A stretch of DNA of 32,000 bases, from positions 17,508 through 49,507 of the forward strand of contig DATKIB010000065.1 of assembly GCA_035509915.1 (NCBI GenBank), given 5' to 3'. The first letter of the stretch is position 1. Each line of letters begins with the position of its first letter. This document shows positions 13,937-30,090 of the stretch, piece by piece. The translations under genes were made by a program, and so were the position numbers. Source of the stretch: Acidimicrobiales bacterium (GTDB lineage: Bacteria; Actinomycetota; Acidimicrobiia; Acidimicrobiales; UBA8190). Below the pieces are notes generated by a model that saw only the letters and a list, made by a program, of their open reading frames with translations, had not been told where the DNA came from and did no database searches.

Positions 13937-13965
13937 TTGACGCGTCGTAGTGGTGAGTGTACTTT
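13937..13965 (+). promoter_or_regulatory. candidate promoter TTGACG-N17-TACTTT upstream of the FHA-PrsW gene
   Basis: Hexamers read from the sequence in the divergent intergenic region, about 70 nt upstream of ATG 14035. Confidence 0.3.
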
Positions 13966-14034
13966 CGCGCCGAAGAGTTAGACAGGCCCGGGCTGGGGCG
14001 GCTCTCTCGAGGCCTCCGACTGGGAGGGAAGAAG

Positions 14035-15417
14035 ATGAGCGTCGTCGACGGAGGCGCAGCCCCACCTGCGCCCGGCCAGAGCGTTCCCCCCGTGGCCCCG
14101 GGCACAATCACGATCCACCACGGCCGGCACCGGTTCGTGCTCCAGCCCGGGCAGGCAGCCAAGGTGGGGAGCGGGCCGGCCAACGAGGTCGTGGTCAGTG
14201 ACCCACGCGTCTCGGCCACGCACCTGTTCGTCAGCTGGAGCCCACAGGGTTGGGTGCTCGACAGCGTGGGCACTGGCGGCACGTACATGTCCGGTCAGCT
14301 CGTCACCCGCGTGCTTCTCACACACCCGGTCGAGGCGCGTCTTGCGGCTCCGGACGGACCCCTCGTCCACTTCGAGCCGGCAGTCACAGCACCCTCTGCC
14401 GGGGTACCGGCGAGTACGGTGCAAGGCGCTTTAGCGAAGGCCGGTCTCGGGCACCACAATGGCCAGTGGGCCTCGACGCCAGAGCTCGAGGAGCTGTCCA
14501 CCGCGCTCAAGATCCTCGTCCCGATCCGAAGCTGGTTGAAGAACCCCAGCTGGCACAAGGGGCTCAGGCTTTGCGTGATCCCCTACGCCTTGCTGCCGCT
14601 GTCTTTCATCGCCCTCTTCGCCGGCTCGGGCAACCTCACGACGCCCGGATGGGCCTACAGCCTTTACGTAGCCCCCTTGTGGCTGGTGGCCTTCTGGTAC
14701 CTGATCCGCCCCGGCACGATCACGAGACAGGAGGTGGTCATAGGCGCCATCGTGATCGCCTGGGTCCTCACGTGGATGAAGCTGGTCACGATCCACATCA
14801 ACGACCATCTTGCCGGTGCAGGCCAGTCGTTGACGTTCATCAAGGCCATCGGAGTCGGGTTCAACGAGGAGATCACCAAAGCGCTCCCTGTGCTCATCCT
14901 CGCCGTGGTGCTCATGAAGTTCCGCTCTACGAGGCTCGACGTCCGGATGTGGATGTTCATAGGCACCATCGCTGGACTGACGTTCGGCGTGTACGAGGCG
15001 ACCAGCTACACGGTCGGCGCCATCGTCAGCATCCACGCCGCAACCGGCAACAACGGGGCGGTCGTTGCTAGCCTCGAGTTCGCTTACCGAGTGTTCGTGG
15101 ACGGGTTCCAACACGCCGTGTGGGCCGGCATCTCGTGCTTCTTCGTCGGGATGGCGATCAACCACCGACGCCGGGGAGTGCAACTGATCCTCGTCGGTAT
15201 CGTGATCGCGGCTGTCCTGCACGGGGTGAACGACTGGATCGCTCCTGCGGTAAACAGCCTCTGGGCGCAGGTGGCCGTCGAGGCCGTGTCGCTGTTCCTC
15301 TTCTTCGGCTACTCGATGTCTGCCCGTGACATCGAGCTCGAAGTACAACAGAACCCCGTGTTCGAAGAGCAGCCGAAAGCGAATACTCAGCAGTCCCAGC
15401 CGACTCCCACCACCTAG
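14035..15417 (+). CDS. FHA domain fused to a PrsW-like polytopic intramembrane protease domain
   Basis: ATG 14035 preceded by GGGAGG. FHA landmarks are present (GR, VSATH, GGTYMSG). The membrane domain has PrsW-type motifs (NEEITKALPVL, GLTFGVYEATSY, FQHAVWAG, LHGVNDW). Confidence 0.75.
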   Translation: MSVVDGGAAPPAPGQSVPPVAPGTITIHHGRHRFVLQPGQAAKVGSGPANEVVVSDPRVSATHLFVSWSPQGWVLDSVGTGGTYMSGQLVTRVLLTHPVEARLAAPDGPLVHFEPAVTAPSAGVPASTVQGALAKAGLGHHNGQWASTPELEELSTALKILVPIRSWLKNPSWHKGLRLCVIPYALLPLSFIALFAGSGNLTTPGWAYSLYVAPLWLVAFWYLIRPGTITRQEVVIGAIVIAWVLTWMKLVTIHINDHLAGAGQSLTFIKAIGVGFNEEITKALPVLILAVVLMKFRSTRLDVRMWMFIGTIAGLTFGVYEATSYTVGAIVSIHAATGNNGAVVASLEFAYRVFVDGFQHAVWAGISCFFVGMAINHRRRGVQLILVGIVIAAVLHGVNDWIAPAVNSLWAQVAVEAVSLFLFFGYSMSARDIELEVQQNPVFEEQPKANTQQSQPTPTT

Positions 15418-15429: not shown

Positions 15430-17352
15430 TCAGGACGCCTTTGTGTGTGAGAGAGAGGCGACCTCGTCGCCGCCAAGGCGGCGGATGGTGAACCCGGCGC
15501 GCGACAGCACCACCGGGATCGTCTTCACGTGCTCCCTGTCCTTCTCCTTGTTGTCCTCGGGGAGCTCGTCGAAGGGCACGTCGATCATCGGGTGGTGCTG
15601 GTTGTCGCGTTGTGAGCCGTAGCGGTATCCCATCCGCTTCATGTCCGCCGACCAGCGATCGTGCTCCAGCGGAGCGAGCGCCTCGATCTCCTCTGCGGAG
15701 AACTCGAAGAGCGGCTCGTTGGCCCGCAACGGAGCAGGCGCGACCACGCACCTAACGCTCGCGAGCTTCGCGGCGATGCCGTCGGCCCACAGCCGGTTGG
15801 ACTCCCTCAGGGCGTGTGGGAGCTGCTCCCAGGGCACGAGGGAGGAGTCCTGCGCCACCGTGACGCCGAGCTCTCGTTGGTGCGCGCAGTGCAGCTCGTG
15901 CCCGAGCCTGGCGATGGTCTCCGTCGAGGTGTGGGTCAACAGCGCGTTGGGTCGCAGGCACTGGCTCATCCAGCCGAAGGAGGCGATGTTCTCGAGCCCG
16001 GGCCCGCCCCTCGTGACCGTGCGGGCCACCCCCGCGTCGTGGTCCGACACCGCTATGACGATCGGGGTGTCGGAGTCGAGCGCTCCCTGCTGGCGGAGAG
16101 TGAGGGCGGTGGCCAGCGCCTCGGTGTCGCTCGGGAGGGCGATGTAGATGGCGCTCACCTCTGCCGGGAAATCAGAGATCCGCCCCGTGGCCGCCAGGTC
16201 GATCTGCCAGGTCCGGAGCTCGACCGACCCGATGTCGCCGAGCTCGGGGTTGCGATTGGTGAGCTCGGCGAGGATCCTCTCGGGGTCGACTCCCACGATC
16301 GTCACGGTGAGCGAGCCGTGCGCCGAGCGCATCGACGCGAGCCAGCGCCTCAGCACGCCCACGACCAGGCTCGGGCCCAGGCCGCCCGCCGTGACGACCA
16401 ACACGTGCGGCGATCCCGGGCGCGCCTCGTCGAAGGGGGGGTGCTCGTCGAGCAGGAGCTCGGCGGCCAGCGCGAAGACGTTCACCAGCTCGAGCCGGAA
16501 TGCCGACTGGTCCCTGTCCACTAGGGCCTGCGCCTTCATCACGTGCCAGAGCTCGAAGTCGTCGAACTCCACGAGAGCTGTGAGCACCCCGTCGCTGCGG
16601 TTGCTGGAAAGCGCTCGTGAGCCGGCGGCGACGTCGATGTTTGCGCCGTCGTTGCCGCACATTGCCACGAGCAGGGCGGCATGCCCAGCGCCCGCCTGCC
16701 TCAGTATTTGGGGGTCGGTGGCGTCACCGATCAAGGTGAAAATACCCCGCTCGCGACAACTCTCTATGCCGACGTTGGACTGGTCGCGCTCGATGACGAC
16801 CACGGGGAAGTCCTCGTCGCTGAAGGCCCTCGCGATCCTCAGCCCTCCGGCTCCTAGCCCGGCCACCACCACGTGGTTGCGCAACCGACGGACCCGGAGG
16901 CGGTTCAGCTGGTCGCGGTACAGGGCTAGGACCACGCCAAGTCCCGCGTACCCCAGCAGGACAGGGCCCAGGAAGCGCGAGATGTTCAAGAGGAGGTTCG
17001 GGTTGTTCGGTACACCGATGTGGATCGCGAACAGCCCGAGCGAGTCGTAGAGAGCGTCGAAGAAGCCGAGCTTCGGGTAGGCCTGCTCGAAGCCGGCAAC
17101 CCCCATCGCCAGGTCGATGACGGCGACGAACGCCAGGAGGGCGGGGCCGGCTCTCTTGAGGCGGTGTACCGCCTCCCTGCCCCTCGCCGAGCGCACCAGC
17201 CGATGGCCGCGCGAGCGCCTGTGGCTCAGTATGTCGATGTCGGCCGCGGTGAGGGACCGGGACTCGACTGTGGTGTCCCGCCCGAAGACCTCTGCGTCGC
17301 TCTCCGCTACCGGAGCTTGGAGCTCGTCCGGCCGTTCAGTTGGCGGCGGCAT
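15430..17352 (-). CDS. membrane protein: 2-TM K-channel-like pore module with a non-canonical filter, RCK/TrkA-N Rossmann domain and C-terminal RyR (ryanodine-receptor repeat) domain
   Basis: FFDALYDSLGLFAIHIGVP aligns with the channel pore helix but lacks TVGYG. VVVAGLGAGGLRIA...VVVIERD is a TrkA-N GxGxxG fingerprint. The C-terminus (LEHDRWSADMKRMGYRYG...HHPMIDVPFDELPEDNKEKDREHV) matches the RyR repeat pattern. ATG 17352 overlaps the upstream gene by 17 nt. Confidence 0.7.
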   Translation of the reverse strand: MPPPTERPDELQAPVAESDAEVFGRDTTVESRSLTAADIDILSHRRSRGHRLVRSARGREAVHRLKRAGPALLAFVAVIDLAMGVAGFEQAYPKLGFFDALYDSLGLFAIHIGVPNNPNLLLNISRFLGPVLLGYAGLGVVLALYRDQLNRLRVRRLRNHVVVAGLGAGGLRIARAFSDEDFPVVVIERDQSNVGIESCRERGIFTLIGDATDPQILRQAGAGHAALLVAMCGNDGANIDVAAGSRALSSNRSDGVLTALVEFDDFELWHVMKAQALVDRDQSAFRLELVNVFALAAELLLDEHPPFDEARPGSPHVLVVTAGGLGPSLVVGVLRRWLASMRSAHGSLTVTIVGVDPERILAELTNRNPELGDIGSVELRTWQIDLAATGRISDFPAEVSAIYIALPSDTEALATALTLRQQGALDSDTPIVIAVSDHDAGVARTVTRGGPGLENIASFGWMSQCLRPNALLTHTSTETIARLGHELHCAHQRELGVTVAQDSSLVPWEQLPHALRESNRLWADGIAAKLASVRCVVAPAPLRANEPLFEFSAEEIEALAPLEHDRWSADMKRMGYRYGSQRDNQHHPMIDVPFDELPEDNKEKDREHVKTIPVVLSRAGFTIRRLGGDEVASLSHTKAS

Positions 17353-20300
17353 GGTACAAGGCCTGCTCGGTCGAGGTCAGGTCGCGGGTGATCCGTCCGT
17401 GAGCGGCCTGTTCGAGCTGGGGAAGAGGCATGGCCCCGGAGGTCGACCACAAGCGCGCGACCCCGTCGTTACCTGCCGTCAGGATCTCAGTACCATTCGA
17501 ATTGAACGCGGCGCTGTTGACTGCTCGTGGGTTCGGCCGAGGGGTTGGCCCGAACACCGCCAGTTGCGAGCCCGACGCCACGTCCCAGATGCGAACGGCT
17601 CCGTCGTCTTCGGACGTGACTATCTGTGTACCCTGGGGATTGAACACAGCCGTGTTGAGCTGACCGGTCGAGGCGTTCATGGGGGGCTTGGCGGGCCGGA
17701 TCGTGTGGCCCGGAGAGCAGTCGGCGGTGTCGAAGACGGCGACGTTGCCTGCGTTGTCCGCTGTCACGACCAGATCTCCCTTGAGGTCGAATTGACCGTC
17801 CCACATCACTGCATCAGGGTCGGGACCCTGGAGCAGGCACGGATGCTCGCTGGGATGGGCGGTGTTCCACATGAGAGCCTGCCCGCTCTGATAGGAGACG
17901 AGCAGGTGGGCCTGCGACTGGTCGAAGGCGATGGAGTTGACTATCCAGTCCGTGGAATCGTCGTAAACCTGGTTGTAATGACACGGAAAATCGAAACTCT
18001 TCGGGCACGACAATTTGATCTGCTTCCCGGTGTTCAAATTGTACAAGTGTACGAGGTAGTTGGTGTCGACGATACCGATCCAGGTCTGCTTCTGGCTCAC
18101 GGCAACCGCGTCGACGTCACTGAGCAGGGTCTTGGGCGACCCCGAAATCGACTGAAGGGTCGCCGTGCTGTTGTCGATGGTGACGATTTGGTTGGGATCG
18201 CCCGGGACCAATGCGAACGCGTAGCCAGCGTAGCTGGCGCGAAGTTTGAGCGTCCTGAGATCCCAGATCTGGACTTGCGACTGGTTCGAGGCGGTCGCCA
18301 CCAACGCGACCTCGTGGTTGCCTGTCCCCGGTACAAACTGCGCGCTGCCCAGTTCTTCGGATCCCGGAGGCACGACCTGCCCGACCAGCTGTCTCGGCAG
18401 AGTGTCCCAGAGCTTCACGGTGTGGTTCTCGTTGCCGGTCACGAGTCGTGGCGCCCCCGTGGGGTCGAATCCGACGGAGTAGATGACACCGCAGTCGCAG
18501 TCCAGCTGAGCGACCTGGTCGCCGGTGCTCGAGTCCCACACGGTCGTCTGTCCGAGGTCGTTGACCGTCGCGAGCTCACTGCCGTCGGAGTTGAAGGTCG
18601 CCGCAATCGTGTCACCGACCGTGTCCAGCGCGTGTAGCTGCGCTGGTGGGGAGCTCGTGACGTCCCACAAGAGCGTCTTCCCGTCGGCGCTTGTAGTAGC
18701 CACCTCAGTCCCGGAGGGGGAGAAGACCGCGTCGGTCATTACGTTGGAGCCGATCGTCGCCAATTGGGTCAAGCTCGGCACCGACCACAAGATGGCACCT
18801 GTGTTGTACGAGAGGGTGACGAGCATGGTGCCGGCGCCGTTGTAAGAGACCGGGCCATAGGAAGGGGTAGCTACGGAATTCGGGGGAGTGCAACCGATCG
18901 CTGCGCCCGTCACCGCATACTCGCAGAGCTGGTCGTTGGTGTCCTCGGTGGCGAAGCTCTTGCCGTCCGGATCGAAGGCGACGTAGTCGATGCCGTAGCC
19001 GTTGCTGGGGTCGTCGCTAATGGCGATGTTCGAGCCGTGGGTTTCCGCTCCCGCCGAGGTCATCGTGAACATCGTCACGTAGCCGTTTCCTTCTGCGACG
19101 GCGAGCTTGGTACCGGCTGGGTTGAAGGCAACCTCATTCGGGTCGGCGCCCCTCGGTGTGGACAAGATCGACGGGGGCGAGGACGGATGGTGAGTGTTCC
19201 AAAGCTCCGCGATATCGATGGCCTTTGTATAAGCGACTGCTGCCACGTAGCTGCCGTCCGGGCTGTAGGCGACGGAATAGACCGAGCCGCGGGCCTGGAG
19301 CGAAGTGAGCTCCTGAGTGCTGCCGAACGCCTGGCGGAGCGCGTTCTGGGCCTCGGGGGTGACGCTGGTCGTGACGGCCTGCAAGGCGAGATTGGTGCTC
19401 AGCTCGGGGTCGCTGCCGAGGTTGCTCACTGCGCTGGCGGCCAGCTGGCGCGACTTCGCCGCGTCGCTCTGAGAGCCCACGTCCCACAGCAGCCCTCCCA
19501 CGACGACGAGCACGACCAGGACCGCCACCGTCCGCCAGTTGCGTGCGCGGCGTCGCTGCGTGCGCGCCTCGCGCTCTGCCCTCTGCTTCTCCCGTTCGGC
19601 CCGAGCAGTGGCCTGCTTGCTACGCCAGTCCAAGATGGCGGAGGCGAGCACGTCGTGGAAGATCTCGAAGCGGGGCGGCTCTTCGACACCGGGAGGCGGG
19701 GGGACGTGGCGGACGATGCGTGAAGGCTGGAGCTTCTCGAGCAGCGCCTCGATCGGCGCTTGCTCATCGGGCCGCTCCGTCAGGCCGCTGAGGTCCTTTG
19801 CCGTTAGTGCGATCTTGGTGCCCGATGGCGTGACGAGCTGCTTGAAGACGTCGGTGGCGATGTCACGTTCGTCCTGCGACAGGCCGTCGAGGGTCGTCGC
19901 GAGGTGCGTGCTCACGATCTGCTGGGCGCCGCCGAGGTCTTCCAGCGTCTTCAAACGCAGGTTCGTGGACCCCGAGTCGACCTCCGCCTGCCAGAGCTTG
20001 CTCATGACCAGTTGGAGGTACGGCGCTTCGAACGCGTCGCCCGCCGCACCGTCCAGAGTGCCCGCGCCCTCCTGGTCCAATCTCACTCGGCCCGCGCGCA
20101 CCTGCTCGAGGACGGTCTCGACGAGAGCCGGCTCCCAGCCAACCTGAGGCTCCCCGGGCCGCCGGCGGTTGAACTCCTCGATGGGGCCCACGATCGCCTC
20201 GCGTGCGGCGGCCTTGCCGAGCGGGTTGACGCGACGCAGCGAGTCGAACAAGGCAGGGGTGCGGTCCTTGAACCGATCGAGCTGCGCCAACGCGTCCTCA

Positions 20301-20878
20301 CGTATCGAGACCAGGAATCCCGCCGGCAGGCCGGGGCGGTTGACGGCCGGGGGGAACTGGGCGAAGAACGTGTCGTCGCCTTCCTCGGCGCCGTGGTAGA
20401 GGAAGTACTCCTCGAACTGGTCGAGGATCACGAGGAGGGCAGCGTCGAGCTGCTCGGTGGCGGCCTCCACGACCTCGATCAACTGACCTTCCGCTGCGAA
20501 GTCGCGGCCGGAGAATTCCCTCGTGGCATCCGCGATGGAGCGGGTGAGCGAGCCCAGCGGGTCGTCTCGCCAAGTGCTGAAGACCACCGGCACGAATTCT
20601 GGAGAGCCGATCGCCTCCTGGTTCTCGTGCGCGAGCTCCCTCAGTCGCGACGCGACACCCGCTCGCAACAGCGAGCTCTTGCCCACCCCGCTCTGGCCGT
20701 ACACGACTGTCAGCCGGCGTGCTTTCAGGTTGGAGATGATCAGGTCCCGCTCGCGTTCGCGACCGAAGAAGAAGGCGGAGTCGTCCTCGGTGAAGAACGT
20801 CAGGCCCTTGTACGGGCTGGTCGCGCCTGTGGCGTCGGGCTCGGGACTCGTCCGTGGTCCCGCTTCGGTGGTCGTCAC
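17336..20878 (-). CDS. STAND-class P-loop NTPase with a central transmembrane helix and about 14 WD40-like beta-propeller blades (1180 aa)
   Basis: YKGLTFFTEDDSAFFFGRERE lead-in. Walker A GQSGVGKSS (20672-20698) and Walker B LLVILDQFEE. Arg-rich stretch then NWRTVAVLVVLVVVGGLLWDV (about 19484-19540). Recurrent blades such as VAFNPAGTKLAVA, AVFSPSGTEVATTSADGKTLLWDV and AVFNPQGTQIVTSEDDGAVRIWDV. Confidence 0.85.
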   Translation of the reverse strand: MTTTEAGPRTSPEPDATGATSPYKGLTFFTEDDSAFFFGRERERDLIISNLKARRLTVVYGQSGVGKSSLLRAGVASRLRELAHENQEAIGSPEFVPVVFSTWRDDPLGSLTRSIADATREFSGRDFAAEGQLIEVVEAATEQLDAALLVILDQFEEYFLYHGAEEGDDTFFAQFPPAVNRPGLPAGFLVSIREDALAQLDRFKDRTPALFDSLRRVNPLGKAAAREAIVGPIEEFNRRRPGEPQVGWEPALVETVLEQVRAGRVRLDQEGAGTLDGAAGDAFEAPYLQLVMSKLWQAEVDSGSTNLRLKTLEDLGGAQQIVSTHLATTLDGLSQDERDIATDVFKQLVTPSGTKIALTAKDLSGLTERPDEQAPIEALLEKLQPSRIVRHVPPPPGVEEPPRFEIFHDVLASAILDWRSKQATARAEREKQRAEREARTQRRRARNWRTVAVLVVLVVVGGLLWDVGSQSDAAKSRQLAASAVSNLGSDPELSTNLALQAVTTSVTPEAQNALRQAFGSTQELTSLQARGSVYSVAYSPDGSYVAAVAYTKAIDIAELWNTHHPSSPPSILSTPRGADPNEVAFNPAGTKLAVAEGNGYVTMFTMTSAGAETHGSNIAISDDPSNGYGIDYVAFDPDGKSFATEDTNDQLCEYAVTGAAIGCTPPNSVATPSYGPVSYNGAGTMLVTLSYNTGAILWSVPSLTQLATIGSNVMTDAVFSPSGTEVATTSADGKTLLWDVTSSPPAQLHALDTVGDTIAATFNSDGSELATVNDLGQTTVWDSSTGDQVAQLDCDCGVIYSVGFDPTGAPRLVTGNENHTVKLWDTLPRQLVGQVVPPGSEELGSAQFVPGTGNHEVALVATASNQSQVQIWDLRTLKLRASYAGYAFALVPGDPNQIVTIDNSTATLQSISGSPKTLLSDVDAVAVSQKQTWIGIVDTNYLVHLYNLNTGKQIKLSCPKSFDFPCHYNQVYDDSTDWIVNSIAFDQSQAHLLVSYQSGQALMWNTAHPSEHPCLLQGPDPDAVMWDGQFDLKGDLVVTADNAGNVAVFDTADCSPGHTIRPAKPPMNASTGQLNTAVFNPQGTQIVTSEDDGAVRIWDVASGSQLAVFGPTPRPNPRAVNSAAFNSNGTEILTAGNDGVARLWSTSGAMPLPQLEQAAHGRITRDLTSTEQALYHAAAN

Positions 20879-20915
20879 GCCAATCCGGCTTCGAAGGTGG
20901 TCACCGTGGCAGCGC

Positions 20916-21932
20916 TCAGGCTGCCCCAGCCTGCTCCGCGAGGAAGGTGTCGAATGCCGCGCTGAGTCCCTCCAGGTAGTCCTCTAGCGGGGTGTCGCGC
21001 ATCTCGACGCCATGGTGCCGCCAAGACGCCCGCTCGACGTCCGAGCAATCTCGCTGGATCGACCACCAGGAGTTCTTCCCCTTGTTGCTGTCGTACAGCT
21101 CGTAGAGGATTGCGCGGAGGTTCCAGTCGTGGAGGCTGTAGCCCAAGAAGAGTAGGTGGCAGTTGTTGAGGCGGACCATCACGTCGGTGGGCAGGCGGTC
21201 CCGCAGGTCGGCACGCCCTGAGCGCCCTTCCCGGCCCAGGTACTCGATGTAGTGGTCCTCGGTTATCACGTAGCTGTCCTGGTCAGGGTCAGACTTGTTG
21301 ACGAAGCCGTGGAGCTTGACGATGACCGTTCTAGTGTCCGGGTTCACCGCGTCGTAGTCCTCGGGCTTCTCGATCAAGGTGAGATCACCATCGGGCGACT
21401 GGTGGAGGAAGCAGCCCTTGTCGGCTCCCTCCGCTACGTAGGCGACCAGGTCGAAGGGCTCGCCCTGGGTGCTGAAGGCTTTTTCGAGCAGGTCGTCGTA
21501 GTTGGTGGTGACTATGAGCGGAGGGCGGCGCAACTTGCCCGCCTCGCGCAACCGGCCGGGCACCGAGGCGAGGAACTCGTGGAGCTTGGTGGTCGGGAGC
21601 TCGCGGTTGAAGACATCGTGCAACGCGAAGTAGAGGGGTGAGGACCCGCCCTGCATGGTGGCGATCCACTGCGCCACCTCCAGCAGGTTGGTCGGGGAGC
21701 TCTCCATGTCGAACTCCCTTGCAAGATGGACTGCCAGCTCCGACGAGCTCGGGGGCCCGTGCCACTCATCGCTGTCGGGAGGGCGGCCGAACAGACTCGC
21801 GCCGGCGCCGAGGACGGGAGTGAGGTTCCCGTTCTTGAACCCGCGGCACACCATCTTGTAGTGCAGCGACAGTTCCCCTGCCACCGCCGTCCTGCCAGGG
21901 TCGTCGGTCTGCGCAAAGGCCATTCGATCCAC
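20916..21932 (-). CDS. SIR2_2-family (Thoeris ThsA/DSR-like) NAD-utilising domain protein
   Basis: LTPVLGAGAS, LIVTTNYDDLLEKAF (Asn codon 21501-21503), VIVKLHGF (His codon 21309-21311) and LLFLGYSLHDWN. No Zn-ribbon module of classical sirtuin deacetylases. Start is GTG 21932 or ATG 21923, both with GGAG upstream. Confidence 0.8.
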   Translation of the reverse strand: MDRMAFAQTDDPGRTAVAGELSLHYKMVCRGFKNGNLTPVLGAGASLFGRPPDSDEWHGPPSSSELAVHLAREFDMESSPTNLLEVAQWIATMQGGSSPLYFALHDVFNRELPTTKLHEFLASVPGRLREAGKLRRPPLIVTTNYDDLLEKAFSTQGEPFDLVAYVAEGADKGCFLHQSPDGDLTLIEKPEDYDAVNPDTRTVIVKLHGFVNKSDPDQDSYVITEDHYIEYLGREGRSGRADLRDRLPTDVMVRLNNCHLLFLGYSLHDWNLRAILYELYDSNKGKNSWWSIQRDCSDVERASWRHHGVEMRDTPLEDYLEGLSAAFDTFLAEQAGAA

Positions 21933-22184
21933 TCCGTCTCCCGAGCCTGCCCAATCCTCCCCCGCCCGAGGGACCAGCTGGTGGGTGAGGTTCCCCGGGC
22001 CACCGCGGCTGCTAGGCGCCTGGAAGCTCCCGCGCGGAAGGTACCAAGACCCCTACGTGATGTCAACTGTTGCACACGGACCAAGCAAATGGAGGCAATA
22101 AGCTCGAAAGGGCAGGCGCCCACTCGGGCGAAGAGCAAGGTCCCACAGGGCAACATTGGTCGGGGAAGGCCCGGGAGCGTTCGC

Positions 22185-23297: not shown

Positions 23298-23588
23298 CTA
23301 CTGGCGCGGCCGCCAGGCCCAGCCGTCCCATACCCAGCGCCCGTCCGGAGAGACCTGCCCGGTGGGGTTCGCCGCTCTCGCCAACCGAGCGGCGCCGTCG
23401 TACGACTGCTTGCGCTTCCTGTACCGGAGCAGGAGCCCCAGGACCACCAACGCGACGAGCACGAGTATCACGACGAAGAGGACGAGCAGTGTGGAGCTCC
23501 CCCCTCCGAGTGGGTTGGGAGATCCTCCGCCGGGTGGAGGTGCAGGTATGTCGGCGAGCAACCCTGCGAACAGCCCTAACAGACCCAC
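23298..23588 (-). CDS. small single-pass membrane protein with C-terminal SPDGRWVWDGWAW motif (96 aa)
   Basis: GTG start and a hydrophobic core (LLVLFVVILVLVALVVLGLLL) followed by RYRKRK. The C-terminal motif is the same as the repeats in the upstream gene. Confidence 0.55.
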   Translation of the reverse strand: MGLLGLFAGLLADIPAPPPGGGSPNPLGGGSSTLLVLFVVILVLVALVVLGLLLRYRKRKQSYDGAARLARAANPTGQVSPDGRWVWDGWAWRPRQ

Positions 23589-23595
23589 GACCTAA

Positions 23596-23601
23596 ATTCT
23601 A
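23596..23601 (-). promoter_or_regulatory. TAGAAT -10-like hexamer 7 nt upstream of GTG 23588 (possible leaderless internal promoter)
   Basis: Minus-strand TAGAAT read from attcta at 23596-23601. The spacing to the start codon fits leaderless transcripts, which are common in Actinobacteria. No -35. Confidence 0.25.
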
Positions 23602-23613
23602 CGTTGACGTCCG

Positions 23614-24228: not shown

Positions 24229-24256
24229 CTTGCGCCAAACATGCAGTATACGGAGG

Positions 24257-24285
24257 TTGTTTTGTACTTGGGTGTGTCTTATAGT
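24257..24285 (+). promoter_or_regulatory. candidate promoter TTGTTT-N17-TATAGT in the locally AT-rich divergent intergenic region
   Basis: Hexamers read from the sequence, about 63 nt upstream of ATG 24348. Confidence 0.4.
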
Positions 24286-24347
24286 TTTTCCGTTACTGGT
24301 CGATTGAGGTGGGCGATTCCCACGAGCACGTGGCCGAAGGGGGCCGG

Positions 24348-25487
24348 ATGATCTGTTTCCGCTGCTCGACGCCGAACCCGGAGGTCGCCCGGTTCTGCCA
24401 CCACTGCGGGGCCGTGCTCGTGCCCGAAGCTGACAGGGCCGACTACTACGCAGCCCAACCGGCGGAGTCGGTGCGTGCACTGGCTCTGGTCAGTACGTTG
24501 ATGCCGCACGCGTCGGCGAACAGGCACCACATCTACCGCCTCGGGCTCGTGTTTGCGGTGGGCGCGGCGCTCGTGGCGGCGGGCTTCGGCATCCTCCCGG
24601 TCGCCCTCGTATGTGCTGGGGTGGCACTACCGGGCATGCTCCTCACCTATTTCCACGACCACGAGGTCTGGAGCGACGAGCCCGCGATAGTCATCGGCGC
24701 GTGTGTGTTCCTCGCAGCCGGAATCGGTGTCGGCGTCGGGTTTCTGGCGAACCTGTTCAGCAACAGCGGGCTGCTCGTCACGATCAACAATGCTCTTCCC
24801 TCGACGGGCCGGTTACTCGAGGAGTGCCTGCTGCTGCCGGCAGTGGCGTTCGTCGCTCTCCAGATCGCACCTAGCCTCGTCACGTCCCGGGAGAAGTTCC
24901 GCCACGCCCTCGACGCTCTCACTCTCGCGGCTCTCGGTGGAGTGGCTTTCGCTCTGGCGGAGTCGATCGTCATCCAGCACGGAGCCTTCTCGAGCTTGAC
25001 GGTCCACAACACCAACGCGGCTACCGACGCCTTCGTGGCTCTCACCCTGGGCTTCGTGAAGCCGATCATCTACGCGACGGCGGCAGCGGTCGCTGTGATG
25101 CGCATGCGCGGGGGCGCCAACAGCTACCTCACCGGACTGGTCGAAGGCTTCCTCCTCGTGGCCATCTATGACACCTCTGTTGCGACCCTCACCTCCTACG
25201 GGCAGCGCGGCGTAGTGCTCACCTTCCTCATCGCAGCCGCGTTGGCGTCGGTGGGCCTGCTCTCGGTCCGCAACGAGGCCCATGGGGCGTTGCTCCAAGA
25301 GGCGGAGCAGGCGGCTGGCATCGCAGAGCCCGGCGGGTTCGGCGGCTTCTGTGCCAATTGCCAGCTCCCTCTGCTCGCGGGCGCGGCGTTCTGTCTGGCC
25401 TGTGGCACGGCCGTAGCGGCGATGCCGAAGCAGCACCAGCGCAGTCTCGCCTCGTCCTCCGGCTCCTCCTCCGACCTGTCCGCCTGA
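24348..25487 (+). CDS. polytopic membrane protein (about 8 TM) flanked by N- and C-terminal CxxC-N9/10-CxxC zinc ribbons; distantly PrsW-like
   Basis: ATG 24348 preceded by GAAGGGGG. CFRCSTPNPEVARFCHHCG and CANCQLPLLAGAAFCLACG. LLEECLLLPAV and LDALTLAALGGVAFALAES resemble the PrsW EE and GF..E motifs, but the His motifs are absent. Confidence 0.7.
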   Translation: MICFRCSTPNPEVARFCHHCGAVLVPEADRADYYAAQPAESVRALALVSTLMPHASANRHHIYRLGLVFAVGAALVAAGFGILPVALVCAGVALPGMLLTYFHDHEVWSDEPAIVIGACVFLAAGIGVGVGFLANLFSNSGLLVTINNALPSTGRLLEECLLLPAVAFVALQIAPSLVTSREKFRHALDALTLAALGGVAFALAESIVIQHGAFSSLTVHNTNAATDAFVALTLGFVKPIIYATAAAVAVMRMRGGANSYLTGLVEGFLLVAIYDTSVATLTSYGQRGVVLTFLIAAALASVGLLSVRNEAHGALLQEAEQAAGIAEPGGFGGFCANCQLPLLAGAAFCLACGTAVAAMPKQHQRSLASSSGSSSDLSA

Positions 25488-25518
25488 TGGCGCCGAAGAA
25501 CCCGACTGGAGCGCTTCG

Positions 25519-26421
25519 ATGACATCGACGTACGAACCGCCTCCTCCGCCTCCGCCGCCACCGTCGGAGGGTGGTCCTGCGGTCCCTTCGGTGGCGTACC
25601 CGCCGCCTCCGCCTCCCCCGCCGCCCAGCGCGCCACCCGGGGCGCCGGGTGCACCCCCGAGCGGCTGGACCGGTCTTCAAGGCAAGATCCCCAACCGCAG
25701 GATCGCCGCGTTCGCGGGCGGCGGCGTTGCGGTTGTGGGCGGGATAGTCGCGTTGATCGTGCTCCTCGGTTCCGGGCCGAAGCCCACACCCCCCCCAACC
25801 CCTCTTCCCACGACCCCTCCCACGACCCCGGCCACGACCCCGAGCACGACACCCTCCACCACACCGAGCACGACGCCCTCAACCAGCCCGAGCACCACAC
25901 CCTCGACCACACCGAGCACCACGCCGACAACGTCTCCCCCGCCCTCCTCGTCGGCGGGAGCGGTCCCGCTCGGGAACGGGCTGAGCGTGAGCCCTGCGAG
26001 CGGCTGGACCGCCAACTGCAGCAACTGCAGCAGCGGGTCCACGGACTTCTTGAGCCCCGACCAGACGTCGGACGTGTACTACGAGGGCCTCAAGCAGACG
26101 TCGTCCAACCCACTCAACGACCTCGTGCAGGGCGTCTCGACGGGCCAGAACGCCTCGTTCTCGAACTTCCAGGGAGGTACCCCGACCAACAGCTCGCTCA
26201 ACTCGAACCCGGCCGGGTTCGGCGAGTTCTCCTACGAGGCCTTCCAGGGAACTGTCAGCACCAACCAGGGCACTCAACAGTTCTACGGAGTCTTGGGAGT
26301 GTTCTGGAACTCGAGCAGCGGTTACGAGGTGTTCTTCGTCTATGAGGCCACCAGTCAGAGCTCGGTGCAGAGCAACCTCAACAGCCTCAATACGATGAAC
26401 GACTCGGTCGTGGCAAGCTGA
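25519..26421 (+). CDS. single-pass membrane protein: polyproline N-terminus, TM anchor, Pro/Thr/Ser linker, roughly 160-aa Ser/Asn-rich extracytoplasmic domain
   Basis: GGAG 8 nt upstream of the ATG. Two runs of nine consecutive Pro codons (25537-25563, 25600-25626). TM IAAFAGGGVAVVGGIVALIVLLG. (TTPS)n linker. Confidence 0.7.
   Translation: MTSTYEPPPPPPPPPSEGGPAVPSVAYPPPPPPPPPSAPPGAPGAPPSGWTGLQGKIPNRRIAAFAGGGVAVVGGIVALIVLLGSGPKPTPPPTPLPTTPPTTPATTPSTTPSTTPSTTPSTSPSTTPSTTPSTTPTTSPPPSSSAGAVPLGNGLSVSPASGWTANCSNCSSGSTDFLSPDQTSDVYYEGLKQTSSNPLNDLVQGVSTGQNASFSNFQGGTPTNSSLNSNPAGFGEFSYEAFQGTVSTNQGTQQFYGVLGVFWNSSSGYEVFFVYEATSQSSVQSNLNSLNTMNDSVVAS
25778..25950 (+). repeat. short tandem coding repeats (acSacSccSagc-type) encoding a (T-T-P-S/T)n linker
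   Basis: Visible periodic 12-nt units encoding PTTPPTTPATTPSTTPSTTPSTTPSTSPSTTPSTTPSTTPTT. Confidence 0.7.
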
Positions 26422-26486
26422 CGACGCTCGGCCAGGGTGAAGGCCCTTCGGGCCCGCAGTTATCGTGCCCGTACTGCGGCGAGACT

Positions 26487-27563
26487 GTGCCCGCCGGGGC
26501 ATTCTGTGGGAACTGCGGCGCGCACCTCTCGGATGCCGGTGGGCGCGCACGGCTCCACCATTACGCGGCATCTCCTAGCGAGCACGTGCTTCGGATCGCG
26601 GTCATCTCGACCTTCTTCCCGCACCTGCCCAGGAGGCACGCGCATCTCTTTCGGGAGACCTTCACGATCGGCTTGCTGGTGGTGGTGCTGCTGGCCGCTC
26701 TCCGCCTGTACGCGCCCGCCTTGATCGCTGCGGCAGCACTGCTACCGATCCTCTACGTCCTCTACCTCTACGAGGTGGAGGTCTGGGAGACCGATTCGGT
26801 CTCCGTCCTGCCGGCCACCCTGGGCCTGGGCGCGGCACTCGGGGTTGGCTACAGCCTCGGTTTCGGTCAGGTGGTGACGGTGGGTTTGGGCGGTCCGCGT
26901 CAGGGAGCGGCGTTCAGCGGCGTCCTCCTGCCGGTGGTCTCGCAGCTGCTCATGATCGTGGGCCCGCTCCTGCTGCTCGGGCGGGTCCGCTTCGACGAAG
27001 CGCTCGACGGGCTGAGCTTCGGGATCACGTCCGCCTTAGGGTTCACCTTTGCGTCGGTGATCGCGGGGTACTGGCACACCCTCACCGCGCCGCTGTTCGG
27101 ATCAGGAAGCATCTCGACCGAGCAGATCGCAGGCATCGCACGCGCTGCGATCCTGGCCGGAGTGGTAAACGCCGCCACTACGGGGATCGTCACCTCGAGC
27201 CTGTGGCTGCGCCGCCACGGCCGCTCGCGCAAGCGTCACGACCACGTCCTTCTCCGATTGCCCGCCGCCGTCGTGATCGCGTTCGGTTTCCAGATCGCAT
27301 TGGGCATCGTGACGTACTTCGTGACGTCTCTGCTGCTGGTGGTGATCCTCTGGGCGATAGCCGCCGCCGCGTTGCTCGTGTGGGTGCGTATCACCGTTCA
27401 CCACGCACTACTGGAGGAGGGCGCAGAGCACGTGATCGGCGAGGCCTCGGCCTGTCCCGAGTGCCACCTGCTCGTGCCGACCATGTACTTCTGCCCGGCT
27501 TGCGGGGCCGCGCGGTCGGCGGTGCCCAAGCACAGCCGACCGCCGATCGGGGCACGGGCGTGA
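26487..27563 (+). CDS. paralog of 24348-25487: double zinc-ribbon polytopic membrane protein (PrsW-like motifs further degenerated)
   Basis: FCGNCG..., HHYAASPSEHVLRIAVISTFFPH (compare YYAAQPAESVRALALVSTLMPH in the paralog) and C-terminal CPECHLLVPTMYFCPACG. The true start is probably upstream of GTG 26487, because the in-frame CPYCG (26466-26480) completes the ribbon. See findings. Confidence 0.7.
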   Translation: MPAGAFCGNCGAHLSDAGGRARLHHYAASPSEHVLRIAVISTFFPHLPRRHAHLFRETFTIGLLVVVLLAALRLYAPALIAAAALLPILYVLYLYEVEVWETDSVSVLPATLGLGAALGVGYSLGFGQVVTVGLGGPRQGAAFSGVLLPVVSQLLMIVGPLLLLGRVRFDEALDGLSFGITSALGFTFASVIAGYWHTLTAPLFGSGSISTEQIAGIARAAILAGVVNAATTGIVTSSLWLRRHGRSRKRHDHVLLRLPAAVVIAFGFQIALGIVTYFVTSLLLVVILWAIAAAALLVWVRITVHHALLEEGAEHVIGEASACPECHLLVPTMYFCPACGAARSAVPKHSRPPIGARA

Positions 27564-28255
27564 CGTCGCTCTCGTACAGCTATCCGGTGGTCGGCGCAGG
27601 GTCCGTCCCCGGAGCGAGGCAGAAGCTTCCGCACACGCGCTTCCTCGCGATCGCCGGCGTGGGCCTAGGCGTCCTGGTGATAGTCATCACCGCTGTCGTC
27701 GTGCTCGTAAAGCCCGGCGTCCAGTCCTGTCACTTCACCTGCGGTCCCGACGTGGGTCCGAGGCTTGTGAGTCCTACTTCCTTCACTAGCTCCGAGTTCG
27801 GATACAAGGTGGAATACGACAGCGGCTACTTCAAGCAGAGCAACGCGACCAAGTCCGGTGCCGAGTTCGACCTGACGATCGGGGGCGGTGGCATCCTGGT
27901 CTTCAAGGCCGAGTCGGGTAGCGACGTCAACGGTGCCGTCGACAGCCTCGTCAACAGCATCAGCTCCAACGAGATCCAGAACCTCCAGGAGATCGAGCCC
28001 GTACCCGGAGCCGAGATCGGCGAGGTGGAGGGCTCGGGGACAGCGTTCTCGGGCACGTTCGTCCCGCAGGGCGGGGGACAGACCGTTCCCGTCTCGGTGG
28101 TTGCGATGGCAGCTTCTTCGCACGGTCTCACGATCGGCGTCCTCGCGATCGATCCGCAGGACCTGAGCTCGGTCCAGACGCTGCCGCTCGGGTTCGCGGA
28201 CGGTGCGTTCCTCGACGCTCCGATCACCGACACGATCTGGCCTGGACAGAGCTGA
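27560..28255 (+). CDS. single-pass membrane-anchored extracytoplasmic protein (231 aa), positional analog of 25519-26421
   Basis: GTG 27560 overlaps the upstream stop (GTGA). TM FLAIAGVGLGVLVIVITAVVVLV. Its stop overlaps the ATG of the S53 gene (TGATG). The track ORF from 27203 is an over-extension. Confidence 0.65.
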   Translation: MTSLSYSYPVVGAGSVPGARQKLPHTRFLAIAGVGLGVLVIVITAVVVLVKPGVQSCHFTCGPDVGPRLVSPTSFTSSEFGYKVEYDSGYFKQSNATKSGAEFDLTIGGGGILVFKAESGSDVNGAVDSLVNSISSNEIQNLQEIEPVPGAEIGEVEGSGTAFSGTFVPQGGGQTVPVSVVAMAASSHGLTIGVLAIDPQDLSSVQTLPLGFADGAFLDAPITDTIWPGQS

Positions 28256-29955: not shown

Positions 29956-30026
29956 CCCCCGCCGAGGCGACCCCTGCCTGCTGTGCGTCGATACAGGGCC
30001 ATGCTTGAACGAAGCGCCGATGAATC

Positions 30027-30074
30027 GACCGTTTCGTGAGACAGGGCGCTGACCGTTTCGTGAGACAGAGCGCG
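30027..30074 (+). repeat. tandem direct duplication of a 24-bp unit (gaccgtttcgtgagacagRgcgcK) 17 nt upstream of the second S53 gene; possible operator
   Basis: Copy 1 at 30027-30050 and copy 2 at 30051-30074 differ at 2 of 24 positions. Read directly from the sequence. Confidence 0.6.
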
Positions 30075-30090
30075 GAACCAAGGCGGCGGG

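Follow-up and report, generated by a model that had tools for sequence, protein, structure and literature searches.

What brings a SIR2-type enzyme, a STAND NTPase with a WD40 array and a channel-like protein together in three closely spaced genes of a soil actinobacterium, and do the three act together? The genes lie in the window (the whole stretch of 32,000 nucleotides that was analysed), all on the minus strand, at 20916-21932 (gene 1), 17336-20878 (gene 2) and 15430-17352 (gene 3). An earlier note, which proposed an uncharacterised conflict system, had placed them there, and open reading frames were found at exactly these coordinates, from which the 37-nt gap between genes 1 and 2 and the 17-nt overlap between genes 2 and 3 that it reported follow. 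The high GC content at third codon positions (0.87, 0.83 and 0.89 in genes 1 to 3; host genome 65-70% GC) indicates that they are real genes. All motifs listed in that note (GQSGVGKSS, LLVILDQFEE, TTNYD and KLHG) are present, as is GLGAGG, and the three codons it had singled out for mutation encode K67, N144 and H208 exactly as claimed. To us the trio looks like an undescribed outside-to-inside alarm pathway, which may tie NAD breakdown to ion flux.

Recurrence and surroundings of the cluster

The trio also stands together in at least 12 further loci, found in MAGs of Acidimicrobiales and Solirubrobacterales and spanning two actinobacterial classes. The order seen in the window (SIR2, nSTAND1-WD40, RCK-RyR) is kept in nine of them, the RCK-RyR gene comes first in two, and in one it is divergent from the SIR2 and nSTAND1 genes; the co-occurrence that the earlier note had suggested looking for is thus found as synteny in other genomes, in three permuted gene orders. 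From sequence comparison, a conserved functional unit of the three genes is supported. Its distribution is sparse, as a pattern scan of 185,579 species genomes returned 12 loci. An nSTAND1 gene is present in 60 of the 61 SIR2 loci whose downstream sequence reaches 300 bp or more, directly adjacent in 57, and the RCK-RyR gene is absent from 11 of the 14 SIR2 plus nSTAND1 loci with at least 6.5 kb downstream. The widespread core consists of two genes, SIR2 and a membrane-anchored nSTAND1, to which one clade has added the channel-like gene.

Around the cluster neither an integrase nor a transposase was found, in agreement with the earlier note, nor were flanking repeats; no phage or plasmid copies of the system were found, and the trio could not be assigned a promoter or a terminator. 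Neighbouring genes in the window and in most related loci have housekeeping roles (Liv ABC transporter, ClpC/DisA/CarD, Lon, pirin), and in one Acidimicrobiaceae clade the cluster occupies a stable position adjoining Lon and pirin. The defence-island context that the earlier note had proposed to test for did not emerge, the neighbours being housekeeping or unknown genes without PADLOC matches. A tentative accessory candidate is the plus-strand gene at 13957..15417, convergent with gene 3, in which Pfam recognizes an FHA domain and a PrsW intramembrane protease; its FHA shares 49% identity with the FHA fused N-terminally to the STAND protein of the closest relative (L014). Moderate evidence points to a further accessory block at 24309..31875 on the plus strand, comprising two Zn-ribbon/multi-TM/Zn-ribbon proteins (24309-25487 and 26487-27563), a Pro-rich TM protein (25519-26421) and two secreted S53 peptidases (28255-29955 and 30091-31875), homologues of which recur near RCK-RyR genes in diverged loci (L001, L013/L014, L095, L096 and L108/L109).

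The three proteins and their relatives

Gene 1 encodes a standalone SIR2_2-type protein of 338 aa, a predicted NADase; its probable start codon is the ATG at 21923, since the database protein has 335 aa, the length counted from this codon, and GGAG lies upstream. The protein matches Pfam SIR2_2 (E = 6.3e-25) and PADLOC ThsA (3.4e-14), and its closest solved structure is the SIR2 NADase KomC, to whose catalytic H146 H208 of gene 1 aligns. These profile and structure matches agree with the SIR2_2 call of the earlier note, identify an NADase-like protein of SIR2_2/ThsA/KomC type, not a classical sirtuin. In an alignment of 26 homologues the motifs G-A-G, T-T-N144-Y-D and K-x-H208-G are invariant, N144 (codon 21501..21503, minus strand), D146 and H208 (codon 21309..21311, minus strand) among them. 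To our knowledge, no SIR2-derived second messenger has been established.

Gene 2 (1180 aa) combines an nSTAND1 NTPase, a single TM helix and a double WD40 propeller. Its NTPase module (residues 22-442; 19553..20815), predicted to be cytoplasmic, is a true STAND NTPase, as had been proposed: it covers positions 1-368 of the 379 of the Pfam nSTAND1 profile (E = 4.1e-50), and the codon check places Walker A K67 at 20678-20680 and Walker B D153 at 20420-20422. Many WD40/beta-propeller models also match the protein, and PADLOC defence models gave no convincing match to it. A TM helix that the earlier note overlooked (residues 450-468, TVAVLVVLVVVGGLLWDVG; 19475..19531; Kyte-Doolittle mean 2.33) separates the NTPase from the WD40 array, and nearly all complete SIR2-linked nSTAND1 partners carry one in the same place. 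Lysines plus arginines total 9 on its N-terminal side and 2 on its C-terminal side; homologues average 6.5 on the N-flank versus 3.3 on the C-flank, with the N-flank higher in 27 of 28. The WD40 array (residues 533-1147; 17438..19282), detected by Pfam and by an HMM from the protein's own repeats, is accordingly predicted to be an extracytoplasmic sensor; the HMM finds 12 blades, and a 105-residue gap has room for two degenerate ones, which fits the roughly 14 counted earlier. With the propellers behind the TM helix, the trigger is probably sensed at the envelope and not in the cytoplasm, so that the sensor role first suggested for them is kept and its predicted site moves outside the cell. 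No part of the cluster diverges more than the WD40 region, which has 32-41% identity between orthologues as against 52-65% for the SIR2, NTPase and RCK-RyR parts, and nSTAND1 partners differ freely in their C-termini, which are WD40 arrays in some and multi-TM regions or short tails in others.

Gene 3 (640 aa) contains, according to Pfam, AF2 and Foldseek, a 2TM pore-like module, tandem RCK domains and a RyR repeat pair. Pfam recognizes TrkA_N (E = 1.5e-16) and RyR (E = 4e-9), the AF2 model (pLDDT 83.6) displays TM1, a pore helix, TM2, two RCK domains and the RyR pair, and Foldseek matches the TrkA ring, GsuK, MthK, Slo1 and RyR Repeat12, the best matches being the TrkA ring and GsuK, including entries deposited with NAD and with ADP. 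The protein models as a GsuK-like module minus the K+ selectivity filter. In the model TM1, the re-entrant pore helix FFDALYDSLGLF and TM2 (residues 52-144; 16921..17199) form helices at 52-91, 97-108 and 120-144. Conservation of D99 and Y102 in the family alignment reaches 90% or more, and the loop at the filter position is variable; TVGYG is absent, and the module has neither an Ion_trans_2 match in Pfam nor a sequence match in the PDB. The RCK, GxGxxG and RyR assignments of the earlier note hold, whereas its K-channel-like pore appears in AlphaFold and Foldseek only, and with no channel sequence match and no canonical filter the case for ion conduction is the AF2 model itself.

The first RCK domain, a TrkA_N Rossmann domain (residues 161-300; 16453..16872; Pfam and alignment), has an invariant G165-x-G167-x-x-G170 and a D190 conserved in at least 90%. 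The second RCK-like alpha/beta domain (residues 316-460; 15973..16407), recognized from AF2 secondary structure and Foldseek, lacks a conserved Gly motif; Foldseek alignments to tandem-RCK TrkA/GsuK span 400-520 columns. The R12-type RyR repeat pair (residues 472-625; 15478..15939) matches solved RyR repeats in the PDB at 1.9e-27 with the family profile. By hhalign it matches the phage protein RyDEP gp78 (probability 97.4%, E = 1.2e-11), with H75/W78/H100/D117 aligned to H564/W567/H587/D605, a predicted ADPR/cADPR pocket (minus-strand codons 15661-15663, 15652-15654, 15592-15594 and 15538-15540) in which H564 is invariant and the conservation of W567 and D605 is 90% or higher. Through these four residues, phage RyR-domain proteins bind 2'/3'cADPR with nanomolar affinity or cleave it to ADPR (PMC13232231). 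The RyDEP catalytic dyad is kept in gene 3, and the signal could therefore be degraded and not read.

The RCK-RyR family comprises 3,323 representatives at E <= 1e-30, a minority of which are covered by genomic context. Diverged RCK-RyR or RyR genes adjoin TIR-TM-propeller proteins in four loci and a TIR-nSTAND1-WD40 protein in another (L106), and one protein (P0290) is a single-chain TIR, TrkA_N and RyR fusion. TIR genes occur in 6 of 12 diverged RCK-RyR/RyR loci versus 1 of 80 control loci (Fisher p = 8.5e-6), a test that favours the positive loci since the TIR queries were drawn from them. The TIR-adjacent and TIR-fused relatives, together with the RyDEP-matching pocket, give independent support to the coupling of gene 3 to NAD+ proposed in the earlier note. 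As for its suggestion that the RCK fold could read NAD+, the link to NAD+ stands, and the RyR repeat pair is no less likely than that fold to read the nucleotide.

A proposed signal flow and its alternatives

We hypothesize that the three components form a membrane-embedded NADase module for signalling or suicide and that this is most likely a conflict (anti-invader) system, a reading to which we give about an even chance. According to this hypothesis the STAND protein would be anchored by its one TM helix, with the NTPase in the cytoplasm and the double propeller outside, where it would recognise a cue at the envelope, for instance a damage product or a foreign protein, of phage or other origin. 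Bound ligand would license NTP-dependent oligomerisation of the NTPase, and the oligomer would recruit and activate the small SIR2 protein encoded just upstream, which would split NAD+ into ADP-ribose and nicotinamide. The third protein, probably a tetramer of two-helix pore, tandem RCK and RyR repeat pair, would read the rise in ADPR or the fall in NAD+ through its RyR pocket and/or the RCK1 Rossmann site and open a non-K+-selective pore. Loss of NAD+ would thereby be coupled to membrane depolarisation and to growth arrest or death, and a defence role is plausible.

That the three genes are neighbours by chance, without joint function, is hardly credible: the missing promoter and terminator would fit it, but it is contradicted by synteny in at least 12 further loci despite 40-65% identity, differing flanks and three gene orders, as well as by the tight spacing. 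We are more hesitant about SIR2 as the only effector, acting by NAD+ depletion, and consider it unlikely. The RCK-RyR protein would then be a regulator or safety device and not a killing pore, its RyR pocket sequestering or hydrolysing ADPR-type nucleotides, or its RCK ring reporting NAD(H), and so setting a threshold or terminating the response. Such a division of labour would suit the majority of lineages, which have the SIR2 and nSTAND1 pair alone (11 of 14 loci), the retained His/Asp dyad that makes RyDEP a glycosidase, the phage RyR homologues, which are sponges or hydrolases and not effectors (PMC13232231), and a pore without a recognisable selectivity filter. A soluble sponge or hydrolase, however, would have no need of the 2TM-pore-helix module and tandem RCK that are kept across a very large family; the whole-protein structural matches of gene 3 are ligand-gated channels, and linear ADPR, the expected SIR2 product, is the product and not the substrate of RyDEP-type cleavage.

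The cluster could also serve no immune purpose and instead carry signals from outside to inside in the normal physiology of these actinobacteria, which we regard as rather improbable. Propellers sensing cell-wall fragments, nutrients or neighbouring cells would here control ion flux or membrane potential by way of local changes in NAD+/ADPR or of protein modification catalysed by SIR2. The setting among core genes without any mark of mobility or of a defence island, the stable place beside Lon and pirin, and the recurring FHA, PrsW, Zn-ribbon membrane and secreted S53 neighbours, which suggest envelope signalling, are what such a pathway would lead one to expect. Against it, conflict systems are typified by SIR2_2-type proteins, TIR domains and STAND NTPases whose repeat sensors are hypervariable (Kaur et al. 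2021, PMC8195603), divergence of the sensor region greatly outpaces that of the remaining cluster, partner C-termini vary freely, the trio is sparsely distributed, and TIR-WD40 and TIR-NB-ARC genes co-occur in two loci (L048 and L106).

Comparison with known systems

The nSTAND1-centred conflict systems (Kaur, Iyer, Burroughs and Aravind 2021, eLife; PMC8195603) share with our cluster the NTPase clade (Pfam nSTAND1, 4e-50), superstructure-forming C-terminal repeats, NAD+-targeting effector domains and FHA, here in the closest relative. Our cluster differs in having its effector as a separate SIR2 gene without a recognisable effector-associated adaptor domain, a TM helix predicted to set the repeat sensor outside, and a channel-like third gene; neither RyR nor TrkA is mentioned in that paper. 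In Avs5-type SIR2-STAND proteins and DSR1/DSR2 a large sensor likewise controls a SIR2 NADase, with abortive NAD+ depletion, but these are single cytoplasmic polypeptides whose helical-repeat sensors bind phage proteins inside the cell, whereas our cluster is split across genes, membrane-anchored, predicted to sense outside by beta-propellers and equipped with a third membrane component; no convincing PADLOC matches were found. Kongming KomC (PDB 8zsf) is the closest solved SIR2 sequence (E = 1e-6), with TTNYD and the catalytic His aligned, but identity is low and confined to the SIR2 core, and KomA and KomB partners are missing from the cluster.

Thoeris, in which the TIR protein ThsB generates a signal for the SIR2-SLOG or Macro/TM effector ThsA, resembles the cluster in its NAD+-centred logic, in the ThsA-type SIR2 domain of gene 1 and in that TIR-linked relatives pair a TIR enzyme with a protein bearing a cADPR-binding-type pocket. 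Unlike Thoeris, the window has no TIR gene and its SIR2 protein no SLOG or Macro sensor domain; the SIR2 protein is placed upstream, proposed to be STAND-activated and not a signal-activated effector, and the candidate signal reader is the RyR/RCK channel-like protein. That protein shares with the K+ channels GsuK, MthK and Kch and the TrkA gating ring a two-helix pore with re-entrant helix followed by tandem RCK, and a conserved GxGxxG dinucleotide site (GsuK was deposited with NAD and ADP; Foldseek E about 1e-9). It lacks their TVGYG filter and Ion_trans_2 match, adds a C-terminal RyR repeat pair, and is encoded in NADase operons and not among ion-homeostasis genes. Finally, the anti-Thoeris RyDEP proteins (bioRxiv 2026, PMC13232231) belong to the same RyR domain family (PF02026, R12) with the four ligand-contact residues conserved, but whereas RyDEP is encoded by phages and, as a small soluble sponge or glycosidase, defeats host signalling, the RyR pair of gene 3 is host-encoded, fused to a membrane pore-like and RCK module and genetically linked to an NADase.

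Domain content and predicted topology of the three proteins

The cluster is made up of three minus-strand ORFs, gene 1 (20916-21932), gene 2 (17336-20878) and gene 3 (15430-17352), with a 37-nt gap between the first two and a 17-nt overlap between the last two, as an earlier note made from the sequence alone had described. Third-codon-position GC (0.87, 0.83 and 0.89 for genes 1, 2 and 3) in a genome of 65-70% GC indicates that these are genuine genes, and the exact cluster proteins are recorded from an Acidimicrobiales metagenome-assembled genome (MAG).

Gene 1 (338 aa) consists of a SIR2 domain only. Its sole Pfam match is SIR2_2 (PF13289, E = 6.3e-25) and not PF02146, CxxC pairs are absent from its sequence, and there is no trace of the Zn-binding Cys4 module. 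The GAG NAD-binding loop, N144, D146 and H208 are invariant across 26 homologues, and H208 aligns with the catalytic H146 of KomC from the Kongming system (PDB 8zsf), the closest solved SIR2 NADase. The ThsA profile of PADLOC matches the protein over positions 35-128 of 478 only. Judged by these features gene 1 falls in the SIR2_2/ThsA-type NADase family, not among the classical sirtuin deacylases, and NADase activity is predicted; the previously claimed SIR2_2 type with retained Asn and His holds, the N144 and H208 codons lying where they had been placed. The ORF coordinates also stood, but the start codon is revised, most likely to the ATG at 21923, since an identical database protein is 335 aa long and there is a GGAG 9 nt ahead of that ATG. 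A word-indexed search found 4,210 clusters of this large family at E <= 0.001. A perfect TTGACA at 22061-22066 (minus strand), which precedes the SIR2 start by about 135 nt and is followed 17 nt on by TACCTT, is a weak candidate promoter that a consensus scan did not call; that scan produced no useful calls of promoters or terminators.

Gene 2 matches nSTAND1 (PF20703, E = 4.1e-50) over profile positions 1-368 of 379, with the NTPase beginning at residue 22, and also a long run of WD40/beta-propeller Pfam models. Walker A (GQSGVGK67S) and Walker B (LLVILD153QFEE) are both present, and the codon named earlier for Walker A encodes K67, in agreement with the proposed STAND NTPase with intact Walker motifs. 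The estimate of about 14 blades was fair as well: 12 were found by an HMM grown from gene 2's own repeats, which was used because a single-sequence AlphaFold model of the WD40 region reached a pLDDT of only 41, and a gap of 105 residues has space for two degenerate ones.

Missed at that stage was that the NTPase and the WD40 array are separated by a strongly hydrophobic stretch (residues 450-468, TVAVLVVLVVVGGLLWDVG); almost every complete SIR2-linked nSTAND1 protein recovered has one in the corresponding position. The 20 residues preceding this type of helix contain on average 6.5 Lys and Arg, versus 3.3 following it, and the N-terminal flank is the richer one in 27 of 28 proteins (9 versus 2 in the window protein). 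The N-terminal NTPase module has no signal peptide which, together with the single helix, implies an N-in, C-out topology; the double propeller is accordingly predicted from sequence to be extracytoplasmic. The WD40 region is 32-41% identical between orthologues, versus 52-65% for SIR2, NTPase and RCK-RyR, a pattern expected of a fast-evolving sensor. No adaptor or effector-associated domain was detected in gene 1 or gene 2.

In gene 3, Pfam bears out the RCK and RyR parts proposed earlier (TrkA_N, E = 1.5e-16; RyR, E = 4e-9), and the family profile matches PDB RyR repeats at 1.9e-27. An AlphaFold (AF2) model from a 28-sequence alignment (pLDDT 83.6, pTM 0.78) consists of a long helix (52-91), a short re-entrant helix (97-108, FFDALYDSLGLF), a loop, a helix (120-144), a Rossmann domain (161-300), a second alpha/beta domain (316-460) and a helical domain (476-625). 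Foldseek ranks the TrkA tandem-RCK ring (3e-10) and the GsuK channel at full length (1e-9) highest, with NAD-bound and ADP-bound GsuK entries among the matches; MthK, Slo1 and RyR Repeat12 domains, that of RyR3 included, come next, the Repeat12 matches including ATP- or ADP-bound entries. G165-x-G167-x-x-G170 is invariant, and D190 and the pore-helix residues D99 and Y102 are at least 90% conserved. Of the K-channel-like 2-TM module claimed earlier, the topology stood, in that the model and Foldseek place two transmembrane helices and a re-entrant helix before an RCK domain with GxGxxG, whereas Ion_trans_2 was not matched in Pfam and a phmmer search of the pore region against PDB sequences found nothing even at E <= 10, so that the argument for homology of the pore to channels is the model by itself. 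The K+ filter position reads AIHIGVP, not T-V-G-Y-G, and is variable across the family, which makes K+ selectivity unlikely.

The apparent rarity of gene 3 was rejected as an artefact: a word-indexed search gave 39 full-length matches, versus 3,323 family representatives at E <= 1e-30 in an exhaustive profile search, the best 150 of which are all near full-length at E <= 5e-132. Two to four additional RyR repeats occur in some of the family. Four database proteins of 900-1300 aa (P0262, P0269, P0289 and P0293) have three to four RyR repeat matches, and another (P0356) has an added TY-Chap1/YbjN domain. The gene is split by frameshifts in several MAGs (loci L008/L099, L098, L100 and L106), these copies being pseudogenes or assembly errors, and the products P0201, P0205 and P0239 mimic standalone RyR proteins; P0201 and P0205 were considered as such and rejected as fragments of frameshifted RCK-RyR genes.

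Linkage of the trio and its genomic setting

A scan with the gene 3 profile, using one genome per species, gave 12 loci, and tblastn was then run on these and on later loci. SIR2, nSTAND1-WD40 and RCK-RyR genes follow each other in the window order in L001, L004, L005, L007, L008, L009, L014, L016 and L019; RCK-RyR comes first, followed by SIR2 and STAND, in L003 and L094, and is divergent from SIR2-STAND in L010. The sources are Acidimicrobiales/Acidimicrobiaceae and Solirubrobacterales/Solirubrobacteraceae MAGs, that is, two classes of Actinomycetota. The window trio is flanked by a Liv ABC transporter and an FHA-PrsW gene on one side and a fatty-acid hydroxylase on the other, the trio of one Acidimicrobiaceae clade by Lon protease and pirin, and that of L094 by small HTH and MerR genes. 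That the linkage persists despite reordering and changed context is strong evidence that the three genes act jointly, and the synteny in other genomes by which the earlier note proposed to judge the cluster is found, in three gene orders and with different flanks.

Not all of the trio appears to be equally fixed. A metagenome scan with the SIR2 profile returned 80 loci, 61 of them with at least 300 bp downstream of SIR2; an nSTAND1 NTPase lies downstream in 60 of the 61 and is immediately adjacent in 57. Where the downstream sequence extended for at least 6.5 kb (14 loci), just 3 loci had an RCK-RyR gene, and all 3 are among the closest SIR2 relatives (at least 56% identity). The C-termini of the partner nSTAND1 proteins vary between WD40 arrays, 2 to 8 further transmembrane helices and short tails. 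The conserved features are thus SIR2 and a membrane-anchored nSTAND1, and on this comparison of loci the core is that pair, with gene 3 an add-on. Kaur et al. 2021 (PMC8195603), who defined nSTAND1, mention neither RyR nor TrkA, and SIR2, RyR and TrkA are all unmentioned in Kaur et al. 2020. We found no description of the pair in the literature on nSTAND1 and defence STANDs, including a 2026 survey of the latter, and PADLOC has no model for the gene 2 NTPase. SIR2 plus membrane-anchored nSTAND1 is now defined as a widespread, uncharacterised two-gene module. In locus L048 (1463-8389) the NTPase of such a pair is followed by five hydrophobic segments in place of WD40 repeats, and a separate TIR-TM-WD40 protein comes after the pair.

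Further genes recur in the vicinity. At least 2.4 kb upstream of SIR2, the window holds on the plus strand two paralogues with 4-7 hydrophobic segments between zinc ribbons (24309-25487 and 26487-27563) and two secreted S53 (sedolisin/kumamolisin-type) peptidases (28255-29955 and 30091-31875). Homologues of both kinds lie beside RCK-RyR genes in L001, L013/L014, L095 and L108/L109, and of the Zn-ribbon protein only in L096; with gene 3, the RCK-RyR genes found there share only 37-65% identity. In L108/L109 Zn-ribbon and S53 genes complete an apparent operon headed by a TIR-RCK-RyR fusion. An FHA-PrsW intramembrane protease gene (13957-15417, plus strand) is convergent with gene 3, and the STAND protein of the closest relative (L014, 11000-14827) has an N-terminal FHA domain 49% identical to that of the window FHA-PrsW protein, which suggests domain shuffling and possibly a functional tie. 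It is suggestive only, but the Zn-ribbon, S53 and FHA-PrsW genes may be further parts of an envelope signalling layer. A relationship of the Zn-ribbon membrane proteins to PrsW was rejected, as BLAST found no similarity to the FHA-PrsW protein, and PADLOC matches none of them. A minus-strand gene at 23298-24480 contains a 48-nt direct-repeat family (23306-23891) encoding D-G-x-W-x-W-D-G-x-x-W-x-P motifs; its product has weak WXXGXW and DUF2510 matches, and a homologue in L013/L014 is directly upstream of SIR2 and co-directional.

SIR2_2, TIR and STAND domains belong to the typical toolkit of conflict systems, and a conflict function of the trio, although unproven, is on balance the likelier one. 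For it we counted these domain types, the hypervariable sensor, the sparse distribution, and the TIR-WD40 and TIR-NB-ARC genes and transposase in some related loci; against it, that the window neighbours are core or uncharacterised genes with no PADLOC match, and that no tRNA genes or flanking direct or inverted repeats were found at the cluster, in keeping with the earlier statement that evidence for mobility is absent. Positions 1-8700 are a conserved actinobacterial core block (ClpC, DisA, CarD, IspD and probable IspF) followed by the Liv-type ABC transporter (8791-13854), which puts the cluster in the core chromosome. A further point against a conflict role is that viral contigs contained no RCK-RyR relative and only SIR2 proteins of at most 29% identity, and plasmids gave no matches except for one chromosome filed as a plasmid. 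PADLOC, which the earlier note had recommended, gave a divided answer: the SIR2 protein matches ThsA, while gene 2 has no convincing model and the neighbours no match.

The RyR pocket and its association with NAD+-cleaving enzymes

RyDEP proteins, anti-Thoeris RyR-domain (PF02026, R12) proteins of phages, cleave 2'/3'cADPR to ADPR or bind these with nanomolar affinity; they use H75, W78, H100 and D117, and a post-reaction crystal has linear ADPR in the pocket (PMC13232231, a 2026 preprint). We took the RyDEP sequence (DyoEdafos gp78) from the accession given there and aligned it by hhalign with the gene 3 family's RyR region; the probability was 97.4% (E = 1.2e-11), and the four residues fell on H564, W567, H587 and D605, respectively. 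Of these, H564 is invariant, and conservation reaches at least 90% for W567 and D605. The RyR pocket of gene 3 is a likely nucleotide reader, ADPR/cADPR binding and cleavage being known for the phage homologues only. A tblastn search of phage genomes with the RyR region did not recover RyDEP. Host-encoded, channel-fused or SIR2-linked RyR proteins are not discussed in PMC13232231.

Outside the SIR2 trio, RyR genes repeatedly have TIR neighbours. An archaeal RCK-RyR homologue (L011, 31% identity) is preceded by a PPC-TM-TIR protein, a degraded RCK-RyR gene (L100) is convergent with a TIR-TM-LVIVD protein, and TrkA_N and RyR ORFs resembling a split RCK-RyR gene (L106) are divergent from a TIR-nSTAND1-WD40 gene. 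A small RyR ORF (L012) is convergent with a TIR-TM-WD40 protein, and a multi-TM RyR protein (L097) lies two genes from a TIR-TM protein. In all of these TIR proteins a single transmembrane helix separates the TIR domain from the remainder; the part after the helix is a beta-propeller in L012 and L100, and the L048 TIR-TM-WD40 protein is built likewise. Their predicted inside/outside layout matches that of gene 2. TIR genes occur in 6 of 12 independent RCK-RyR/RyR loci versus 1 of 80 SIR2-scan loci (Fisher p = 8.5e-6, a figure that is indicative only since the queries were drawn from positive loci). P0290 joins TIR_2, TrkA_N and RyR in a single protein. Substitution of one NADase for another, fusion, and the biochemistry of the domain are thus three independent lines that tie RCK-RyR to NAD+-cleaving enzymes.

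L106 is a TIR analogue of the SIR2 trio; its ORFs lie at 1-2447 (minus strand), 4641-6399 (plus strand), 7577-8020 and 9560-11437, the TIR-nSTAND1-WD40 gene is fragmented by frameshifts, and the locus also has a transposase fragment and a TIR-NB-ARC gene close by. Closely spaced behind the P0290 gene (L108, 8001-10262; L109, 4660-6921) come genes for two uncharacterised TM proteins of 259 and 750 aa, then for a Zn-ribbon multi-TM protein and for an S53 peptidase; a patatin gene is convergent. Not every RyR context is linked to an NADase: a genuine 162-aa RyR-pair protein (L101-L103, 7001-7489), present on many contigs, has type VI secretion genes (TssK/VasE, DotU and IcmF/TssM) as neighbours and no NADase nearby.

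Proposed pathway and relation to known systems

The earlier interpretation is kept as to the unit, the NADase family and the STAND protein, and revised on three points: the sensor is predicted to lie outside the cell, the core is reduced to two genes, and the RyR pocket is taken as the likely reader. What is observed directly are the domains, the transmembrane helix with its charge bias, the conserved residues, the linkage of the genes and the association of NADases with RyR-domain proteins. In the scheme we propose, for which we infer the direction of signal flow, the ligand, ion conduction and the biological role, an external cue would bind the propellers of gene 2, the STAND protein would oligomerise, and SIR2 would be activated as an NADase, raising ADPR and lowering NAD+; gene 3 would read this nucleotide change at its RyR and/or RCK sites, and its pore would open.

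A bolder version, which we hold to be possible but rather doubtful, is that host RyR-domain channels are the natural prokaryotic receptors of NAD-derived nucleotides, and the locus a four-stage outside-in immune pathway of extracytoplasmic beta-propeller receptor, transmembrane STAND switch, SIR2 NADase (TIR in sister systems) and ADPR/cADPR-gated RyR-RCK cation channel. If so, the long-debated cADPR/ADPR-to-ryanodine-receptor axis of animals would have in it a bacterial counterpart and possibly an evolutionary source, the phage RyDEP sponges would be captured copies of a host receptor domain, and the S53 peptidases (secreted) and Zn-ribbon membrane proteins that recur might make up an extracellular layer of proteolytic input.

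To our knowledge, the STAND/NLR-type immune sensors reported to date detect their triggers intracellularly, and a family with its repeat sensor outside the membrane would extend NLR-like signalling to cell-surface surveillance. An RyR pocket that is joined to a channel-like module and genetically linked with SIR2/TIR NADases offers a testable candidate for a nucleotide-gated RyR-domain channel, and makes the old question of ADPR-type nucleotides acting on RyR domains accessible to experiment in a simple bacterial protein. That RyR (R12) domains bind or cleave cADPR signals was shown only in 2026, and only for phage proteins (PMC13232231).

Compared with known systems, the trio departs from Thoeris in that gene 1 has none of ThsA's SLOG, Macro or TM sensing domains, and Pfam scans of 23 candidate genes, including all cluster neighbours, found no TIR domain (ThsB). 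Avs/AVAST proteins are single-chain effector-STAND-TPR, whereas the trio has split genes, a WD40 sensor and a transmembrane helix; no Avs model was matched in PADLOC, where the best match of gene 2 was PtuA (5.5e-4). Membership in Thoeris, Avs, DSR and Kongming was rejected, as the defining partners or domains are absent. With RCK-gated K+ channels gene 3 shares, in its model, the layout of two transmembrane helices, re-entrant helix and RCK, but not the pore domain and filter, while it has both the fold and the His/Trp/His/Asp pocket of the RyR/R12 family that includes RyDEP. Like nSTAND1 systems, gene 2 has the NTPase module with Walker motifs and a C-terminal repeat array; unlike them it has no N-terminal effector fusion or effector-associated domain, a separate SIR2 gene taking that place, whereas its L106 relative carries an N-terminal TIR on nSTAND1. 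We assign the trio to the nSTAND1 class, in which it would represent a new split, membrane-embedded architecture with a new candidate effector or receptor.
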